Shown here: positions 6,327-15,044 of the stretch, one piece after another
Numbering within the stretch: the first letter of the stretch is position 1
Layout of the letters: each line of letters begins with the position of its first letter
Virus record (IMG/VR): IMGVR_UViG_2695420632_000003
Location: 1 to 20,169 of that record
Length of the DNA stretch: 20,169 bases
DNA from: a virus
Lineage: Duplodnaviria; Heunggongvirae; Uroviricota; Caudoviricetes
Direction: 5' to 3' (one strand)
Made by a program: the position numbers and the translations under genes
Notes under the pieces: model-generated
What the model saw: the letters and a program-made list of their open reading frames with translations, nothing else
What the model was told of the DNA's origin: nothing
Database searches by the model: none

Positions 6327-6537
6327 AAACGGTTTGCGGGAAAAGGAGAGTTAAGTAGAATTGCAGCGGGTGCTTGAGGCTATCTGTCTCAGGCATGAAC
6401 ACCAAAAGGCAGATAGAGAAAAGCCCCAGTTAACATTACGCGTCCGGCAAGACGCTTAACATTAATCTGAGGCCATATCTATGCTCTACACACGTAGGTT
6501 AGCCTCTTACGTGCCGAAAGGCAAGGAGAAGCAGGCT

Positions 6538-6693
6538 ATGAAGCAGCAAAAGGCGATGCTAATCGCCCTGATCGTCATCTGTTTAACCGTCATTGTGACG
6601 GCACTGGTAACGAGGAAAGACCTCTGCGAGGTACGAATCCGAACCGGCCAGACGGAGGTCGCTGTCTTCACAGCTTACGAACCTGAGGAGTAA
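6538..6693 (+). CDS. hok: Hok/Gef family type I toxin (HokD/RelF-like, 51 aa)
   Basis: Translation MKQQKAMLIALIVICLTVIVTALVTRKDLCEVRIRTGQTEVAVFTAYEPEE is a Hok-family membrane toxin as I recall it; SD AAGGAGA upstream; an in-frame upstream extension (6481) occupies the mok-like position; intrinsic terminator follows. Confidence 0.85.
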   Translation: MKQQKAMLIALIVICLTVIVTALVTRKDLCEVRIRTGQTEVAVFTAYEPEE

Positions 6694-8195: not shown

Positions 8196-8576
8196 ATGAC
8201 TGAACGCATAGAATTTGTTTTGCCTTACCCGCCAACGGTGAACACTTACTGGCGACGCCGTGGCAGCACATATTTTATCTCGGAGGAGGGAAAGCGTTAT
8301 CGCCGGGCTGTGGCGCTTATTGTTCGCCAGCAGCGGCTGAAATTAAGCCTGTCCGGAAGGCTGGCGATAAAGGTGATTGCAGAGCCACCGGATAAGCGTC
8401 GTCGCGACCTGGACAATATCCTGAAAGCACCGCTGGATGCGCTGACGCATGCGGGAGTGTTAATGGACGATGAGCAGTTTGATGAAATCAATATCGTTCG
8501 TGGTCAGCCAGTATCTGGTGGACGTATGGGGGTGAAGATTTACCCCATAATGCATGAAGAGCAGGTCAAAAAATGA
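8196..8576 (+). CDS. rusA: RusA-family Holliday junction resolvase
   Basis: Translation contains DKRRRDLDNILKAPLDALTHAGVLMDDEQ, matching the RusA catalytic region (DxRRRDLDN); typical nin-region position just upstream of Q. Confidence 0.85.
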   Translation: MTERIEFVLPYPPTVNTYWRRRGSTYFISEEGKRYRRAVALIVRQQRLKLSLSGRLAIKVIAEPPDKRRRDLDNILKAPLDALTHAGVLMDDEQFDEINIVRGQPVSGGRMGVKIYPIMHEEQVKK

Positions 8577-9394
8577 AACTGGAAGATTTACCGAAATACT
8601 ACTCCCCAAAATCCCCTGGCCTGACCGATGCATCGGCCTCAACGTCAAAAGATGCGCTGAGTATCACTGATGTGATGGCCGCGCAGGGCATGACACAGAA
8701 TCGGGCTGAGATGGGGTTTTCTGCGTTCCTGGGGAAAATGGGCATCAGTATGAATGACAGGGCGCGGGCAACAGAATTACTGGCAGATTATGCACTCAGT
8801 CGGTGCGATCGTGTGGCGGCGTTGAGAAAACTTCCGGCAGAAATAAAACCGGTAGTGATGCGCATTATGGCTTCGTATGCGTTTGAAGATTATGCCCGTA
8901 GCGCGGCGAGCAAAAAACAGTGCCCCTGCTGTCACGGAAAAAAATTTATTGAAAGCGAGGTTTTTACAAACAAGATCCAGTATCCGGATGGTAAGCCACC
9001 AGTGTGGGCAAAGTGCACAAAAGGCGTGTATCCGTCTTACTGGGAAGAATGGAAAAAAGTCAGGGAGGTGGTAAAAGTTGCCTGTCCGGAGTGTGGCGGA
9101 AAGGGTGAGGTTTCCACCGCCTGTAAGGATTGCCGTGGGCGTGGTGTCGCCATTCATCGTGAAGAGTCGGTAAAACGTGGTATGCCTGTTATCAGAGATT
9201 GCCAGCGTTGTGGTGGTCGTGGCTGTGAAAGGCTGCCATCAACGGAGGCATTTAATGCCATATGCAAAGTGACGAGTGCTATCACGCTTGATACGTGGAA
9301 AAAATCAGTGAAACGCTTTTACGATACGTTGGTGGTTCGGTTTGACATTGAAGAGGCATGGGCGGAGCGGCAGTTAAAGAGGGTAACGCGATAG
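8573..9394 (+). CDS. Late-gene antiterminator Q-like protein with four CxxCxGxG zinc-finger-like repeats
   Basis: Position between rusA and a promoter/terminator pair; start overlaps the rusA stop (ATGA); repeats CPCCHGKK, CPECGGKG, CKDCRGRG, CQRCGGRG. Functional call is mainly by synteny. Confidence 0.6.
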   Translation: MKLEDLPKYYSPKSPGLTDASASTSKDALSITDVMAAQGMTQNRAEMGFSAFLGKMGISMNDRARATELLADYALSRCDRVAALRKLPAEIKPVVMRIMASYAFEDYARSAASKKQCPCCHGKKFIESEVFTNKIQYPDGKPPVWAKCTKGVYPSYWEEWKKVREVVKVACPECGGKGEVSTACKDCRGRGVAIHREESVKRGMPVIRDCQRCGGRGCERLPSTEAFNAICKVTSAITLDTWKKSVKRFYDTLVVRFDIEEAWAERQLKRVTR

Positions 9395-9399
9395 TGTTG

Positions 9400-9427
9400 T
9401 TGATTTTTCCCGAATCTGTGGTAAATT
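9400..9427 (+). promoter_or_regulatory. Candidate late promoter PR' (-35 TTGATT, 16-bp spacer, -10 TAAATT)
   Basis: Sigma70-like hexamers read directly, 6 nt after the Q stop; predicted short transcript ends at the terminator at 9476-9498. Confidence 0.4.
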
Positions 9428-9475
9428 TGCTCTAACGATGGGCGTTTTATGCCTGACGTTAGAAGATTTTTTACA

Positions 9476-9498
9476 CCCCGCCGCCTGGCGGGTTTTTT
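9476..9498 (+). terminator. Intrinsic terminator (candidate tR')
   Basis: CCCGCC-GCCT-GGCGGG hairpin followed by TTTTTT. Confidence 0.55.
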
Positions 9499-9968: not shown

Positions 9969-11018
9969 ATGCTTAATACTGTAAAAATATCCAGTTGTGA
10001 GTTAATCAACGCCGACTGCCTGGAATTTATCCGGTCGTTACCCGAAAATTCTGTTGACCTGATAGTCACGGACCCGCCGTACTTTAAAGTGAAGCCTGAG
10101 GGCTGGGATAACCAGTGGAAGGGCGACGATGATTACCTGAAGTGGCTGGACCAGTGTCTGGCGCAGTTCTGGCGGGTGCTGAAACCTGTCGGAAGTCTTT
10201 ACCTGTTCTGTGGTCATCGCCTGGCATCTGATATCGAAATCATGATGCGTGAACGCTTCAGTGTGCTGAACCATATTATCTGGGCGAAGCCGTCCGGACG
10301 CTGGAACGGATGCAACAAGGAAAGCCTGCGGGCGTATTTCCCCGCCACAGAGCGCATTCTGTTCGCGGAACATTATCAGGGGCCGTATCGTCCGAAAGAT
10401 GCCGGGTATGCGGCGAAGGGCAGTGCACTGAAACAGCATGTGATGGCCCCGCTGATTTCTTACTTTCGTGATGCGCGCGCGGCCCTGGGGATAACGGCAA
10501 AACAGATTGCAGATGCCACAGGAAAGAAAAACATGGTGTCGCACTGGTTCAGTGCCAGTCAGTGGCAGCTACCGAACGAAAGCGATTATCTGAAATTACA
10601 GTCGCTGTTTGCCCGGGTGGCAGAAGAGAAACATCAGCGCGGTGAACTGGAAAAGCCCCACCACCAGCTGGTGGATACGTATACGTCACTGAACCGGCAG
10701 TATGTGGAGCTGCAGAGTGAATATAAGCATCTGCGGCGGTATTTTGGTGTGACGGCGCAGGTGCCGTACACGGATGTGTGGACACATAAACCGGTGCAGT
10801 TCTATCCCGGGAAACATCCGTGCGAAAAACCGGCAGAAATGCTGCAGCAGATAATCAGCGCAAGCAGTCGTCCGGGAGACCAGGTTGCAGATTTTTTTAT
10901 GGGCTCAGGTTCAACGGTAAAAGCGGCACTGGCGCTCGGGCGTCGTGCGATTGGCGTTGAACTGGAGACCGGACGTTTTGAGCAGACAGTCAGGGAAGTT
11001 CAGGATTTAATCGTTTGA
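9969..11018 (+). CDS. DNA methyltransferase, beta-class amino-MTase (N6-adenine or N4-cytosine), apparently orphan
   Basis: Catalytic DPPY motif near the N-terminus (LIVTDPPYF) and SAM-binding FxGxG near the C-terminus (DFFMGSGST): motif order IV then I. No adjacent restriction endonuclease candidate. Confidence 0.8.
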   Translation: MLNTVKISSCELINADCLEFIRSLPENSVDLIVTDPPYFKVKPEGWDNQWKGDDDYLKWLDQCLAQFWRVLKPVGSLYLFCGHRLASDIEIMMRERFSVLNHIIWAKPSGRWNGCNKESLRAYFPATERILFAEHYQGPYRPKDAGYAAKGSALKQHVMAPLISYFRDARAALGITAKQIADATGKKNMVSHWFSASQWQLPNESDYLKLQSLFARVAEEKHQRGELEKPHHQLVDTYTSLNRQYVELQSEYKHLRRYFGVTAQVPYTDVWTHKPVQFYPGKHPCEKPAEMLQQIISASSRPGDQVADFFMGSGSTVKAALALGRRAIGVELETGRFEQTVREVQDLIV

Positions 11019-11067: not shown

Positions 11068-11143
11068 GGCCCTTTAGCTCAGTGGTGAGAGCGAGCGACT
11101 CATAATCGCCAGGTCGCTGGTTCAAATCCAGCAAGGGCCACCA
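11068..11143 (+). tRNA. ileZ: tRNA with CAT anticodon, ileX/ileZ-like (tRNA-Ile2, lysidine type) rather than tRNA-Met
   Basis: 76 nt, cloverleaf folded by hand: acceptor GGCCCTT/AAGGGCC, anticodon loop CTCATAA, T-loop TTCAAAT, encoded CCA; close to E. coli ileX as I recall it. Confidence 0.8.
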
Positions 11144-11150
11144 TCACATA

Positions 11151-11227
11151 CCGCCATTAGCTCATCGGGATAGAGCGCCAGCCTTCGAAGCTGGCTGCGC
11201 GGGGTTCAAGTCCCCGATGGCGGTCCA
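11151..11227 (+). tRNA. argN: tRNA-Arg (anticodon TCG)
   Basis: 77 nt; acceptor CCGCCAT/ATGGCGG, D-stem GCTC/GAGC, anticodon loop CTTCGAA, T-arm CGGGG-TTCAAGT-CCCCG, encoded CCA. Confidence 0.75.
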
Positions 11228-11240
11228 TTATCTGCATCAT

Positions 11241-11317
11241 GCGTTGTTAGCTCAGCCGGACAGAGCAATTGCCTTCTAAGCAATCGGTCACTGGTTCGAA
11301 TCCAGTACAGCGCGCCA
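11241..11317 (+). tRNA. argO: tRNA-Arg (anticodon TCT, decodes AGA/AGG)
   Basis: 77 nt; acceptor GCGTTGT/ACAGCGC, anticodon loop CTTCTAA, T-arm ACTGG-TTCGAAT-CCAGT, encoded CCA. Confidence 0.8.
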
Positions 11318-11424
11318 TATTCATTCTTCCAGATTCCTTTCGGCAGAGCCTTATACTGAAATATACCTGGCTCAGGATATTGTTGAAAATATTATATGTT
11401 TGTCAAAAATAAAAGTTCTGTTAA

Positions 11425-11781
11425 GTGTTGATTGAGTGTTTGTTATACGGTCTAATGGTTTTTTCAGCATTAAATATTTATCATTCATATGGTGTGGGTA
11501 GAGTGAATATTGATGAGGCGTCGGGGTGTTTCATCCTTAGGCAGCGTATTGATATAGTCAATGCAGAACGAGCAAAGGCCTTCAGCCGTTTGACAGTTTT
11601 GTTCTGTACTCCTGATCGTCTTTCGGGAAGAGACGTTATTATTCTGAATAGTGATGCTATACAGAGGGTTTGCGATGAGTTCATGGTGGCTAATTCAGAA
11701 TTATTTGCTCTTGTTCAGGAGTACAACAGAATAGCCAGGACCTGTGGTATGGATGAACTTCGGATTACTCATCTGGGGTAG
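11425..11781 (+). CDS. Uncharacterized cargo ORF in the stx-equivalent slot (93-118 aa depending on start)
   Basis: Only long + ORF in the AT-rich segment; frame opens at GTG 11425; alternative GTG 11503 has a GGTAGAG SD-like sequence. Rich in AGA/AGG/ATA codons. No recognisable motif. Confidence 0.4.
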   Translation: MLIECLLYGLMVFSALNIYHSYGVGRVNIDEASGCFILRQRIDIVNAERAKAFSRLTVLFCTPDRLSGRDVIILNSDAIQRVCDEFMVANSELFALVQEYNRIARTCGMDELRITHLG

Positions 11782-12172
11782 ATACATATCTGGATTATCA
11801 CCGGTTACGGTAAAAAGTGATTGCTTACTGTTTTTGTGAATGGCATTGCAGCAGCCGGATAATGTCAGTGCTGGCTGACGGTGTGCTGGTGGCGGGTGTG
11901 GTGGTTGCTGCTTTCCCGTTGCTGAAAAAGAAAACGCCAGACTGTTAGCCGGGTATCAGTTAGCGGGAGAAATTTTTAAATACTTCACAATTCAGGCGGT
12001 TGACTGTTGTCTGGTTTGCGGGGAGTTTGTTAAAAGAAACTGGCATGGTGAATCCCCCTGTGCGGAGGGGCAATCAGCGAGTAGGTATATGGGATAATCG
12101 CGGATTCAGGTGCTGGTACTGAATTCACCGGGAGGCACCCGGCACCATGCAATGGCACATAGCGCCACTCTC

Positions 12173-12200
12173 CAGCCCCTCTCCGGAGGGGCTGTTTATA
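12173..12200 (+). terminator. Strong intrinsic terminator (+ strand) inside the cargo segment
   Basis: 9-bp GC-rich stem CAGCCCCTC / GAGGGGCTG with UCCG tetraloop, followed by TTTATATTGATTTT. Confidence 0.6.
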
Positions 12201-12228
12201 TTGATTTTGTCAGATGTGAGTAAACTCC

Positions 12229-12564
12229 TTATGGACTTTGTTGTTTTAGCCCATAAGGACATATTTGCAGAGTGCAACGGTTATTAAAGCATTCATTCAA
12301 TACGTTATCTGTATTTGTAGGGCATTCCTGGCTGTTTTTGATTAAATTCCAGAATGTTTTATTGAATGGTACTACGTTGTAAATGGTTACAGGCAGCACT
12401 TTGTTATTGAGCATGATGCCTGTGTGAGTCAGTGTAAATATACTTTCAGGAGGTAAGAAAGCATCCGATTGATACCAGATTATTAATTTTATTTTACTCC
12501 ATATGACTGAAAAAGATATTCCGCATGATGGCTGGATAACTGTATCAATCACAATCCACTTCAT
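12229..12564 (-). CDS. Uncharacterized Cys-rich 111-aa cargo ORF, antisense to the phage late transcript
   Basis: Long ORF in ~35% GC (stop-rich) DNA; AAGGAA SD 5 nt before ATG 12564; sigma70-like promoter on the minus strand around 12610-12650 (TTTACA ... TATACT). Confidence 0.45.
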
Positions 12565-12809
12565 TTAGTTTCCTTGTTTATGCCTTGCTGGTGATGTTCT
12601 GAAAAGTATAAATGATATTTTTGATTGTAAACCATAGAGCAGAATTATTTTTCTGATGTTGTTTATTGTTTATTTAAATGCAGGGTGGTTTATATCTCGT
12701 CTTGTAGTTTATCCATGCATATCTGCTTGATGATGAGGTTTTTAATTAAGGTATGGTTTTGTGTTTTTTCTGTATTACATGTCAGGTATTTTAAAGAATC
12801 ATTTTTCAG

Positions 12810-14678
12810 ATGGTGGAAAGAACCATGGCATTTAAACACTATGATGTTGTCAGGGCGGCGTCGCCGTCAGATCTTGCGGAAAAGCTGACACATAAACTGA
12901 AAGAGGGCTGGCAGCCGTTTGGTAGTCCGGTGGCCATAACCCCTTATACCCTGATGCAGGCGATTGCAGCAGAAGGTGATGTGGTCGTCAGTGGTGCAAC
13001 TGAGCCGGAGTGGTACTACGTCATCGTACTGGCCGGGCAGTCCAATGCCATGGCTTACGGTGAAGGGCTTCCGCTTCCGGATTCATACGATGCGCCCCAT
13101 CCGCGCATTAAGCAACTGGCCCGTCGTAACACAGTGACTCCCGGTGGTGAAGTATGCGTATTTAACGACATCATTCCTGCTGACCATTGTCTGCATGATG
13201 TTCAGGATATGAGTACGATTAACCATCCCCGGGCTGACCTGAGCAAAGGGCAGTACGGCTGTGTCGGCCAGGGCTTACATATTGCCAAAAAACTGCTTCC
13301 GTATATCCCTAATAATGCGGGGATCCTGCTGGTACCATGCTGTCGTGGTGGTTCGGCATTCACCCAGGGCACGGAGGGGACATTCAGCGAGTCCACGGGG
13401 GCCAGTCAGGATTCGGCTCGCTGGGGAGTGGGTAAGCCGTTATATCAGGATCTGCTTTTCCGCACGAAGGCAGCATTGCAGAAAAACCCGAAAAACGTTT
13501 TGCTGGCGATATGCTGGATGCAGGGGGAATTCGATATGACGAATGCCAGTTACGCCCAGCAGCCAGCAGCATTTCTTGCAATGGTACAGCAGTTCCGTGC
13601 TGACCTTGCCGGGCTGGCAGCGCAGTGTCACGGTGGAAGTCCGGCATCAGTCCCCTGGATTTGTGGCGACACGACATACGCGTGGAAACAAGAACACGGT
13701 ACGCAATATGAAGTGGTATATGGTGCATATAAAGGTAAAGAATCCCAGCAGATTTATTTTGTTCCCTTTATGACCGATGGTAGCGGAGTTAATACACCGA
13801 CAAACAACCCGTCAGAAGATCCTGATATTGCCGGGTCTGGTTATTACGGTTCGGCATCCCGAACGAACAAAAACTGGGTATCATCAAATCGCCCGACGCA
13901 TTTCAGCTCATGGGCGCGTCGTGGCATTATTCCCGATCGTATGGCAACTGCTATTCTGAACGTAGCCGGGCGCACCTCAGCCTTCATCAGTGGTAAGGCA
14001 CCGGAAATCAAACCCTCGCCCGGCGGCGACACGCCATCGGGTCCGTCTGCAGATACGTCCGTTCGCACAATCTCCCTGCTGCCGACAGCCGGAGAGGCTG
14101 CTGCGCAGGGCTGGACCATCACCGGCGGCAGTGTTGCGCTGGAAGATGGTGTGTTTAAGGTTACCAAGCAGAGCAATAAAACCTGGTCCCTGATGCATCC
14201 GGTGGATGACGCAGTCTCCCTGCTGACACGGGGTGGCAGACTGAGCTGTAAGTTTCGACTGTCAGGCGCACTGACCAACAACCAGTTCGGTCTGGGAATT
14301 TATCTGTATACCGATGTAGCGTTACCTGACGTCGTGGCGATGACCGGGACTGGTAACCCGTTCCTGATGTCGTTCTTCACCCAGACCACAGACGGCAAAC
14401 TGAATCTGATGCATCACAAGAAAGCCGGAAACACAAAGTTGGGCGAGTTCGGGAATTACAGTAACGACTGGCAGACGCTGGAGCTGGTGTTCACCGCCGG
14501 CAGTGCCACGGTTACTCCGAAACTGAATGGAGTGGCTGGCCCGGCATTCCAGGTTATAAAAGACAGTCTGACACTGGGACTGAATGCGCTGACGCTGACG
14601 GATATTACCAAAAATGCAGCGTATGGCGTTGAGATAGAAAGTCTGGTGCTGGAGATAAATGCACCGGCATCATCATAA
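12810..14678 (+). CDS. nanS: NanS-p-like sialate 9-O-acetylesterase (SGNH/SASA hydrolase domain, N-terminal DUF1737-like region)
   Basis: GQSN motif (VLAGQSNAMAYGEG) of SGNH esterases; size and location (downstream of the tRNA triplet, upstream of S) match the yjhS/nanS-like gene of Stx prophages. True start may be ATG 12825 (MAFKHYDV..., SD GGTGGA). Confidence 0.75.
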   Translation: MVERTMAFKHYDVVRAASPSDLAEKLTHKLKEGWQPFGSPVAITPYTLMQAIAAEGDVVVSGATEPEWYYVIVLAGQSNAMAYGEGLPLPDSYDAPHPRIKQLARRNTVTPGGEVCVFNDIIPADHCLHDVQDMSTINHPRADLSKGQYGCVGQGLHIAKKLLPYIPNNAGILLVPCCRGGSAFTQGTEGTFSESTGASQDSARWGVGKPLYQDLLFRTKAALQKNPKNVLLAICWMQGEFDMTNASYAQQPAAFLAMVQQFRADLAGLAAQCHGGSPASVPWICGDTTYAWKQEHGTQYEVVYGAYKGKESQQIYFVPFMTDGSGVNTPTNNPSEDPDIAGSGYYGSASRTNKNWVSSNRPTHFSSWARRGIIPDRMATAILNVAGRTSAFISGKAPEIKPSPGGDTPSGPSADTSVRTISLLPTAGEAAAQGWTITGGSVALEDGVFKVTKQSNKTWSLMHPVDDAVSLLTRGGRLSCKFRLSGALTNNQFGLGIYLYTDVALPDVVAMTGTGNPFLMSFFTQTTDGKLNLMHHKKAGNTKLGEFGNYSNDWQTLELVFTAGSATVTPKLNGVAGPAFQVIKDSLTLGLNALTLTDITKNAAYGVEIESLVLEINAPASS

Positions 14679-14761
14679 AAAGTGAGCCAGTCAAATGGAA
14701 GGTATCGTTAAACTCACCGGTAGTGTCAGTGGGTCGTCTGAGATGCCTGCATGAGTTATCA

Positions 14762-14793
14762 GAGCCATCAGTACTTAACTGGTGGCTTTTTTT
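14762..14793 (+). terminator. Intrinsic terminator between nanS-p and the holin gene
   Basis: 9-bp stem AGCCATCAG / CTGGTGGCT (one G-U pair), loop TACTTAA, followed by TTTTTTT. Confidence 0.5.
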
Positions 14794-14828
14794 ATTGTTG
14801 TCAGCTTCCGGATAACGGGAGACGGGGT

Positions 14829-15044
14829 ATGTACCAGATGGAAAAAATCACAACAGGTGTGTCATACACCACGTCAGCGGTGGGAACGGGCTACTGGTTC
14901 CTGCAGTTGCTGGACAGGGTTTCCCCGTCTCAGTGGGCGGCAATAGGCGTGCTGGGGAGTCTGCTGTTTGGGCTGCTGACATATCTGACTAACCTGTATT
15001 TCAAAATCAGAGAGGACCGGCGTAAGGCGGCGCGGGGAGAGTAA
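14829..15044 (+). CDS. S: Class II holin, S21-like pinholin (71 aa) with dual-start motif
   Basis: Translation [71 protein letters not shown]: two TM segments, Met1/Met4 dual start, charged C-terminus; partnered with a SAR endolysin downstream. The ORF track extension to 14751 runs through the terminator and is rejected. Confidence 0.8.

Follow-up and report, generated by a model that had tools for sequence, protein, structure and literature searches.

In EDL933, 11 copies of the STnc100 sRNA are present, and one of them has been confirmed by Northern blot (PMC5331693). In Stx2 phages, the STnc100 element starts about 75 nt after stx2B (PMC12370729), and EcOnc27/sRNA103, an Hfq-bound sRNA encoded just 3' of stx2B, equals or overlaps an STnc100 copy (PMC12711010, PMC7873438, PMC4104026). 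Hfq binding of STnc100-type prophage sRNAs is recorded in two published datasets (PMC4104026, PMC7873438), and an RpoD ChIP-exo signal has been observed at the Salmonella STnc100 copies (PMC10794520). PasD, an Hfq-dependent RNA, is related to STnc100 (PMC8550237; bioRxiv 10.64898/2026.05.13.724894); STnc100 has been described as kin to PasD1 and PasD2 of EPEC and as linked to Q and sialate esterase genes (Zhu et al., 2026; bioRxiv 10.64898/2026.05.13.724894). From the literature on these homologues, the family would act as Hfq-associated, trans-acting sRNAs.

Described systems also exist for a short membrane-protein gene and for short terminated RNAs in prophages. In phage JLK-2012, the start of tciB (PF13064/PHROG 1470) overlaps the stop of a TerB-like gene, tciA; a literature search for DUF3927 and tciB found no functional study. 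Type I modules of the hok/sok kind contain a short hydrophobic ORF, and lambda 6S RNA and StxS are short terminated RNAs of the late-regulatory region that are read through under Q.

The stretch of viral DNA analyzed here, referred to as the window, is 20,169 nt long. A sequence-only reading had presented its positions 11862-12200 as one discrete structured RNA unit, in which a 28-codon hydrophobic ORF reminiscent of a type I toxin precedes GC-rich hairpins and a strong terminator, and had offered a small toxin mRNA, an sRNA or an attenuator as its nature. The interval very probably consists of two independent cargo-region pieces of a lambdoid prophage: what erosion has left of a tciB-like DUF3927 gene, and an STnc100 sRNA gene. 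Of the options offered, the sRNA holds for the downstream half, and the toxin mRNA and the attenuator do not. Both pieces are already known and catalogued, and are ordinary for a lambda-like prophage; what novelty is left concerns the STnc100 core, whose fold is under tight constraint.

Prophage setting and STnc100 identity

The window belongs to a lambdoid prophage of the E. coli type and covers its late-regulatory part. The cargo region follows the order Q, pR'-tR', methylase, ileZ/argN/argO-type tRNAs, cargo, STnc100, nanS-p and lysis genes, with the following features:

6368-6543: hok/sok module, recognized by Rfam
8196-8576: RusA
8573-9394: Q antiterminator (PF03589)
9400-9428, plus strand: late promoter pR' (TTGATT-17-TAAATT), directly 3' of Q
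9400-9498, plus strand: pR' with the lambda-type pause element AACGATGGG and the terminator tR' (9477-9498)
9969-11018: N6/N4 methylase
11068-11317: three tRNAs (cat, tcg and tct)
11455-11781, plus strand: 108-aa phage gene of unassigned function (PHROG 2873; 235 bits against phrog_2873)
12014-12203, plus strand: STnc100 sRNA gene (Rfam RF02076; 132.4 bits against a gathering score of 47, E = 2.2e-29)
12229-12564, minus strand: convergent iraM-like anti-adapter gene (NCBIfam NF007393, 162 bits against a cut-off of 121; RefSeq annotation)
12810-14678: NanS-p (DUF1737/SASA esterase)
14751-15044: P21-type holin

The pR' hexamers are followed by CTAACGATGGG, the sigma-dependent pause element of the lambda pR' type. 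The PHROG 2873 gene, with homologues down to 56% identity, fills the cargo slot in which Stx phages have stx (the "moron" slot downstream of pR'-tR'). E. coli FORC_069 has the same annotated arrangement and is 100% identical over the stretch 11782-12013.

The option of an sRNA in the downstream half is borne out by the RF02076 match, which is full length (model positions 1-206 of 206, not truncated), and by the Northern blot and Hfq binding reported for its relatives (PMC5331693, PMC4104026, PMC7873438). STnc100 is the sole Rfam family matching 11300-12900, even at E ≤ 10. It lies between the Q/pR' cargo slot and the lysis genes and ends in an intrinsic terminator. The G+C content, said to be raised against AT-rich surroundings, is 0.52 in 11801-12200 and 0.40 and 0.36 in the flanking windows. 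Of 5426 complete E. coli genomes, 2860 contain the STnc100 region of the window, in up to 12 places per genome. STnc100 is not annotated in the RefSeq record of FORC_069 (the one feature table examined); there, as in the further E. coli records of RefSeq that were listed, nothing but a "hypothetical protein" lies under it, which in FORC_069 is called on the opposite strand and flagged as a pseudogene. A full-text literature search with strings from the conserved core returned only a qPCR primer. More than half of the complete E. coli genomes have a member of this family, and in Stx phages it adjoins stx2.

Among the closest counterparts is STnc100/EcOnc27/sRNA103 of Stx2 phages, which shares with the window a full-length match to the model, the same helices, the same type of terminator (GCCCCTCTCCGGAGGGGC) and the position between the post-pR' cargo slot and nanS-p (DUF1737 esterase). 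The cargo differs, being stx in those phages and the PHROG 2873 gene with a tciB relic here, and so does the convergent neighbor: Stx phages have an anti-sRNA of the AsxR/AgvB type (Tree et al., 2014; PMC4104026) in the slot held here by the iraM-like gene, and the Rfam search of 11300-12900, even at E ≤ 10, found no such anti-sRNA adjoining STnc100. Copies from Stx phages also differ from the window in the leader and the linker, the parts in which a seed would be expected; in STnc100, target specificity probably resides in these two variable parts, the 5' leader and the linker. PasD1 and PasD2 of EPEC prophages resemble the window copy in their shared fold and common ancestry with STnc100 (Zhu et al., 2026), in their linkage to a PF03589 Q and sialate esterase genes, and in Hfq dependence; the window copy, however, scores as STnc100 proper, PasD having been compared by description only.

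The small ORF

The 28-codon frame and its hydrophobic segment followed by KKK are present as the sequence-only reading had them, and the ribosome-binding site suspected of being weak is indeed so (GCCGGATAATG). The features of this part are:

11862-11948, plus strand: 28-codon ORF from ATG 11862 to TAG 11946-11948 (translation MSVLADGVLVAGVVVAAFPLLKKKTPDC)
11817-11948, plus strand: 43-codon GTG ORF that contains the 28-codon ORF; RefSeq "DUF3927 family protein" WP_001438304
11786-11861, plus strand: degenerate 3' end of tciA and 5' part of a tciB-like gene, with 11-, 4- and 5-nt deletions relative to phage JLK-2012 (from the alignment)

Upstream of ATG 11862, the frame is open to GTG 11817, with a TAA at 11811-11813. 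Pfam PF13064 (DUF3927) recognizes the 43-aa form with 92.7 bits (E = 1.3e-26) and the 28-aa form with 55.7 bits (E = 4.8e-15) against a cut-off of 25, and PHROG 1470, "TciB-like", matches with E = 1.5e-11, though only through residues 12-40, which correspond to positions 23-51 of the 54 in the profile. Neither the ORF nor the structured region that follows it is a product of chance, each matching a curated family at a very low E-value. A protein search with the ORF recovered 43-aa forms, very common 28-aa forms starting at Met 11862, and forms of 54-57 aa. The last are the full-length relatives, with two hydrophobic/membrane segments (e.g., MTVKMRLAVVALLLFLVVMVDFSSRIMSVLADGVLVAGVVVVAFPLLKKKASGD). 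Diverged full-length copies of DUF3927 have a pN/pS of 0.19-0.32, and the long forms are therefore a real coding gene under purifying selection; copies of the 43-codon type found in the window are 95-100% identical to one another, too alike to measure selection.

Comparison with JLK-2012 shows how the window copy decayed. The C-terminal 32 codons (SSRIMSVLADGVLVAGVVV.AFPLLKKK) are 90-97% identical to those of DUF3927/TciB-like genes such as tciB, and the flanking DNA is homologous; against JLK-2012, the homology crosses from the last part of tciA into the beginning of tciB and is interrupted by the three deletions. The window copy has nonetheless lost its starts and its first TM: the canonical GTG start is now GTT, the ATG that followed it is deleted, and between the 4- and 5-nt deletions the first TM is out of frame (LLLFLVVMVDF reads AYCFCEWHC), the tciB frame being regained only from SSRIMSV onward. 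The TerB-like partner has been cut to about 30 nt, and the upstream gene is instead that of PHROG 2873. What is left has neither the full-length DUF3927/TciB architecture (about 54 aa, two hydrophobic segments and the original start) nor a preceding, overlapping TerB-like tciA gene. Since the alignment with JLK-2012 places the lost starts and the out-of-frame first TM upstream of it, Met 11862 corresponds to a conserved residue in the loop inside these two-TM proteins and not to a start codon.

It is quite improbable that the ORF, in its 28- or 43-codon form, encodes a functional one-TM membrane peptide, possibly toxic in the manner of type I toxins, with the downstream RNA as part of its mRNA or as its regulator. 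The hydrophobic segment and the KKK are real, both forms are intact in thousands of genomes and annotated in RefSeq, and the lack of a terminator-like site from the ORF stop to 12173 makes a transcript shared with STnc100 possible. Against such a peptide stand the internal position of Met 11862, the loss of the starts and the out-of-frame patches, the weak SD, and the occurrence of broken variants of the same 43-codon form, with a premature stop in one (L098) and frameshifts in two others (P0020, P0022). No type I antitoxin RNA family matched 11300-12900 in Rfam at E ≤ 10, and consensus scans, which can miss real sites, detected neither a promoter-like nor a terminator-like site around 11800-11960 on the minus strand. 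Where the family is intact, the coupling is to a TerB-like gene and not to an antisense RNA, unlike in toxin-antitoxin modules, and most STnc100 loci do not have the ORF. Unlike in hok/sok modules, with which it shares the short hydrophobic ORF in a prophage, no antisense RNA was found here, the ORF is not embedded in a conserved mRNA fold, and it is not conserved independently as a unit; Rfam recognizes the hok/sok module of the same window but not the ORF region. What looked reminiscent of a type I toxin in the sequence is most likely the 3' part of a decayed two-TM gene of the DUF3927/TciB-like family.

The ORF at 11817-11948 is, most likely, a relic and not a functional gene, and the same probably applies to the 28- and 43-codon ORFs that are called "DUF3927 family protein" across thousands of E. 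coli genomes, which would be relics of a two-TM gene; this bears on how such calls are used in annotation. The remnant may persist by adjoining the conserved STnc100 block. That the two belong to different mosaic modules follows from their boundaries and their distribution: homology with Stx phages begins only at about 11969, past the ORF stop, and a DUF3927 ORF lies upstream in only about 27 of about 230 loci that carry the STnc100 core. The single discrete unit does not survive these comparisons, and the apparent pairing of a toxin ORF with a structured RNA is a mosaic accident. Co-transcription of the ORF and STnc100 is possible and does not imply a functional unit.

Promoter, transcript and terminator

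Two elements flank the structured part of STnc100:

11969-12013, plus strand: conserved upstream block of the STnc100 module, an AT-rich stretch and TCACAATTCAG, shared among E. coli-type copies
12173-12199, plus strand: intrinsic terminator CAGCCCCTC-TCCG-GAGGGGCTG followed by TTTAT (hairpin 12173-12194)

Two transcription starts can be predicted. In the first, the TCACAATTCAG block would supply a -10 element, CACAAT at 11987-11992, for a start near 12000 and an RNA of about 200 nt; in the second, TTGACT at 12001-12006 as the -35 element and GAGTTT at 12024-12029 would direct a start near 12036 and an RNA of about 164 nt. Both candidates stand as predicted sites. A promoter scan of 11960-12040 reported none, and the local match to consensus is poor. 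In many genera, a promoter resembling TTGAC-17-TAAATT abuts P1, the outermost helix of the core, and the RNA would begin at P1 because the -10 element lies 13-16 nt before GGTGAA; in E. coli-type copies, the window included, this stretch before the core is 9-10 nt longer. The promoter-like sequences and the RpoD ChIP-exo signal in Salmonella suggest that STnc100 would be transcribed in the lysogen by sigma-70 RNA polymerase from its own promoter. By extension from the published work on homologous copies, STnc100 of the window may give rise to a separate RNA of about 160-210 nt that associates with Hfq.

The terminator had been described as a 9-bp stem, and its hairpin at 12173-12194 consists of 9 pairs (7 G-C) that close a 4-nt loop, with the TTTAT tail behind it. 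A terminator hairpin with a U-tail is the usual Hfq-binding module. The STnc100 RNA would end at this terminator, which is the first terminator-like site downstream of the ORFs at 11455-11948; no other was found in 11636-12172. Because there is no such site between these ORFs and 12173, transcripts from upstream would also end here, and the terminator would stop transcription arriving from the cargo genes. In the lytic phase, Q-modified polymerase that started at pR' (9400-9428) would pass through it.

The same absence of a terminator-like site between the ORFs and STnc100 suits a rather unlikely alternative, in which STnc100 has no promoter of its own and is a 3'-UTR-derived sRNA, processed or terminated from transcripts of the cargo genes (11455-11948). 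The poor local match to a promoter also fits, as do a conserved A/U-rich GUUAAAA before P1 that could be an RNase E site and the start of the Stx2-phage element about 75 nt past stx2B (PMC12370729). A near-consensus TTGAC-17-TAAATT nevertheless abuts the core in many genera, RpoD ChIP-exo signal is found at Salmonella copies, and the conserved module boundary at about 11969 takes in the TCACAAT block upstream of the RNA. An origin in a 3' UTR is not exclusive with the reading of the interval as a gene remnant and an STnc100 gene.

STnc100 as a Q-dependent pR' leader akin to lambda 6S was also considered. The likeness is that of a short terminated RNA in the late-regulatory region, read through under Q, but the pR', the Q-binding spacer and the AACGAT pause are at 9400-9443 and not at 11960-12040. 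The 6S/StxS counterpart in the window is pR' with AACGATGGG and tR' at 9400-9498, some 2.5 kb upstream, and STnc100 is a second, separate unit. The 6S-like reading was rejected because pR'-tR' follows directly after Q and the order Q, pR'-tR', STnc100 recurs in nine other loci.

The conserved core and its contexts

The core of STnc100 is a five-helix junction with a covarying pseudoknot:

12043-12150, plus strand: conserved structured core
12043-50 / 12143-50: helix P1
12054-58 / 12064-69: helix P2, with 12066 bulged
12070-71 / 12100-01: helix P3'
12102-09 / 12119-26: helix P4
12128-32 / 12138-42: helix P5
12073-78 / 12112-17: pseudoknot, pairing the strand after P2 with the P4 loop
12126-12147, plus strand: 22-mer CACCGGGAGGCACCCGGCACCA, covering the last P4 pair, the entire P5 hairpin and the P1 3' strand

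Both GC hairpins singled out in the sequence-only reading belong to this fold, the CCCCC/GGGG hairpin at 12054-12069 as P2 and CCGGG-AGGCA-CCCGG at 12128-12142 as P5. The covariation and Rfam search that it had proposed as a check came out in favor of a structured RNA, with the STnc100 match at 132.4 bits and core helices that covary. In a MAFFT alignment of 93 diverse core copies, which was not fitted to any structure, 86.8% of the cells are paired over all helices as compared to 40-44% with the partners slid; the covariation score is 0.30 against 0.07-0.09 for slid partners and was reached by none of 500 shuffles. Both sides change in 20 of the 34 pairs. For the pseudoknot alone, 68% of cells are paired versus 22-47% when slid, and all six pairs change on both sides (e.g., CUGGUG/CACCGG, CCAGUC/GACUGG and AAGGUUG/CAACCUU). 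Duplex energies are -10.4 kcal/mol for self and -7.6 kcal/mol for cross pairing. The minimum free energy fold of 12036-12203 has -69.2 kcal/mol (z = -2.33 versus shuffles). This single-sequence fold yields P1, P2, P4 and P5 and draws a local GCGA/UCGC stem instead of P3' and the pseudoknot, which the comparative data favor as the predicted structure. A text search of Zhu et al. (2026) found no mention of "pseudoknot" or "promoter".

Conservation is concentrated in the same segment. Among 214 unique copies, it is limited to about 12046-12147, and the flanks vary. Exact matches to CACCGGGAGGCACCCGGCACCA occur in 110 stretches, which represent many Enterobacteriaceae genera, and in no fewer than 120 viral contigs. 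Of 182 unique copies chosen by the P2 motif, 176 have the 17-nt hairpin segment ACCGGGAGGCACCCGGC unchanged, and the invariance of P5 is therefore not an artefact of how copies were chosen. A location at a mosaic boundary, with flanks unrelated between phages, is also what a DNA-level recombination linker between phage modules, devoid of RNA function, might show, but compensatory changes in P1, P2, P3', P4 and the pseudoknot, together with published expression and Hfq binding, make that scarcely credible. A likeness of the core to cobalamin riboswitch, tRNA-like or ribozyme motifs was considered and dropped: no Rfam model except STnc100 matches, and ARAGORN makes no call in this region.

For an sRNA that simply base-pairs with targets, so extreme a conservation and a pseudoknot are out of the ordinary, and they point to some further or other activity. 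An unlikely reading is that of a cis-acting leader, riboswitch-like or protein-binding, in which the core would govern termination at 12173-12199 and downstream read-through and STnc100 would not, or not only, act in trans. The layout agrees with this in most lineages, where a promoter is followed by the core of about 105 nt, a linker of 25-70 nt and the terminator; some copies run straight into ORFs with an SD and ATG or precede kdgM porin genes by 160-230 nt, and the pseudoknot and near-invariant P5 would suit such a role. In E. coli-type copies, the 3' arm of P2 (GCGGAGGGGC) resembles the 3' arm of the terminator (CCGGAGGGGC), which would allow alternative pairing. Terminator sequences differ between lineages, however, with no conserved complementarity to the core, and a conserved, mutually exclusive terminator/antiterminator pairing with the core was not found across lineages; a conserved P2/terminator antiterminator was discarded, since the arm similarity is confined to E. 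coli-type copies and is unproven. According to published work, the RNA accumulates in its terminated form and binds Hfq, and the mixed gene contexts suggest no ligand or partner. In the window itself, the attenuator once proposed has no gene to attenuate directly downstream on the same strand: the next gene, the iraM-like one at 12229-12564, is convergent on the minus strand, and nanS-p starts about 600 nt away.

In some other loci, a same-strand gene does lie directly downstream. A first-ORF version of the clustering of downstream genes was noisy from spurious short ORFs, and the contexts given here rest on long ORFs only. By predicted promoter, the core is at the very 5' end of the transcript in many genera, and it recurs as a leader in settings that are unrelated to each other, namely prophage late regions, prophage operons of the yfdP-yfdQ type and, on chromosomes, operons for a kdgM porin and a pectate lyase. 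The papers examined describe neither the pseudoknot nor such leader settings. Because of the leader-like settings, the pseudoknot and the invariant P5 (ACCGGGAGGCACCCGGC), the idea is kept, tentatively, that the core of about 105 nt is an autonomous, complex-folded RNA domain that may bind a specific partner, be it a protein, RNA polymerase or a small molecule. The pseudoknotted, near-invariant core offers a handle on function.

The settings outside the late region are of two kinds. In a set of prophages, the core precedes yfdP-like, YfdQ (DUF2303) and yfdR-like genes. On the chromosomes of Kosakonia, Klebsiella, Raoultella and Enterobacter, the core is followed at a distance of 160-230 nt by a KdgM-family porin gene and then by one for a periplasmic pectate lyase, with a divergent LuxR-type gene on the other side.

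Annotation at STnc100

The RefSeq feature table of E. coli FORC_069 (locus L003) holds no RNA feature at STnc100, the prophage sRNA of Rfam RF02076, and contains an incomplete pseudogene running antisense to it:

L003 3752-3877 (window 12033-12158), minus strand: RefSeq incomplete 'hypothetical protein' pseudogene

Among the matches listed, a 'hypothetical protein' lies under the STnc100 match in ten of 12 other RefSeq E. coli records and nothing in the remaining two; this CDS is probably an artefact of annotation.

The late promoter and cargo slot

9400-9498, plus strand: lambda-type late promoter pR' (TTGATT-17-TAAATT), pause element and strong tR'
11068-11317: tRNA trio
11455-11781: 108-aa PHROG-2873 gene
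12229-12564, minus strand: iraM-like anti-adapter gene (NCBIfam, 162 bits)

The pR'-tR' unit lies directly 3' of the antiterminator gene Q, and AACGATGGG, which follows pR', is its lambda-type pause element. The transcript expected from the unit is short (~65 nt) and StxS/6S-like. Nine other loci share this layout upstream of STnc100. The tRNA trio is of the kind typical of Stx phages, and its cat-anticodon member is a tRNA-Ile according to RefSeq. The cargo position downstream of pR'-tR' is occupied by the PHROG-2873 gene, whereas Stx phages carry stx there; homologues of this gene reach down to 56% identity, yet despite them it is left without RefSeq annotation in FORC_069.

The iraM-like gene is convergent toward the STnc100 terminator; in Stx and other O157 prophages its place is held by the convergent anti-sRNAs AsxR/AgvB. 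The early region of the prophage that carries the STnc100 copy also contains a toxin-antitoxin module, with which ORF 6481-6693 belongs:

6368-6543, plus strand: hok/sok-type type I module (Rfam sok RF01794, 117 bits)

STnc100-type cores in other settings and in tandem

L023:2174-2875, minus strand: example of the KdgM-type setting
L053:3878-5815: example of the yfdP/YfdQ/yfdR setting

In seven loci (L009, L020, L023, L030, L046, L058, L073), cores resembling the conserved structured domain of STnc100 are found beside a divergent LuxR-type gene and precede, by 160-230 nt, a KdgM-family porin gene that is followed by a periplasmic pectate lyase. The loci come from Kosakonia, Klebsiella, Raoultella and Enterobacter and are chromosomal, not prophage. 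A core variant precedes yfdP-like, YfdQ (DUF2303) and yfdR-like prophage genes (L006, L053, L054), and its P2 hairpin, GCGGC...GCACGC, is fully compensatory.

In several viral loci, STnc100-type cores are repeated in tandem, two or three of them lying within a few hundred bases of one another in a single prophage: examples are L129, L146, L160 and L180, with two cores ~480 nt apart, and L138 and L169, with three P2 motifs each.

P2 and the terminator

The 3' arm of P2, GCGGAGGGGC (12062-12071), is nearly the same as that of the terminator, CCGGAGGGGC (12184-12193), and thus P2 could serve as an alternative pairing partner for the terminator 5' arm. The similarity is confined to E. coli-type STnc100 copies.
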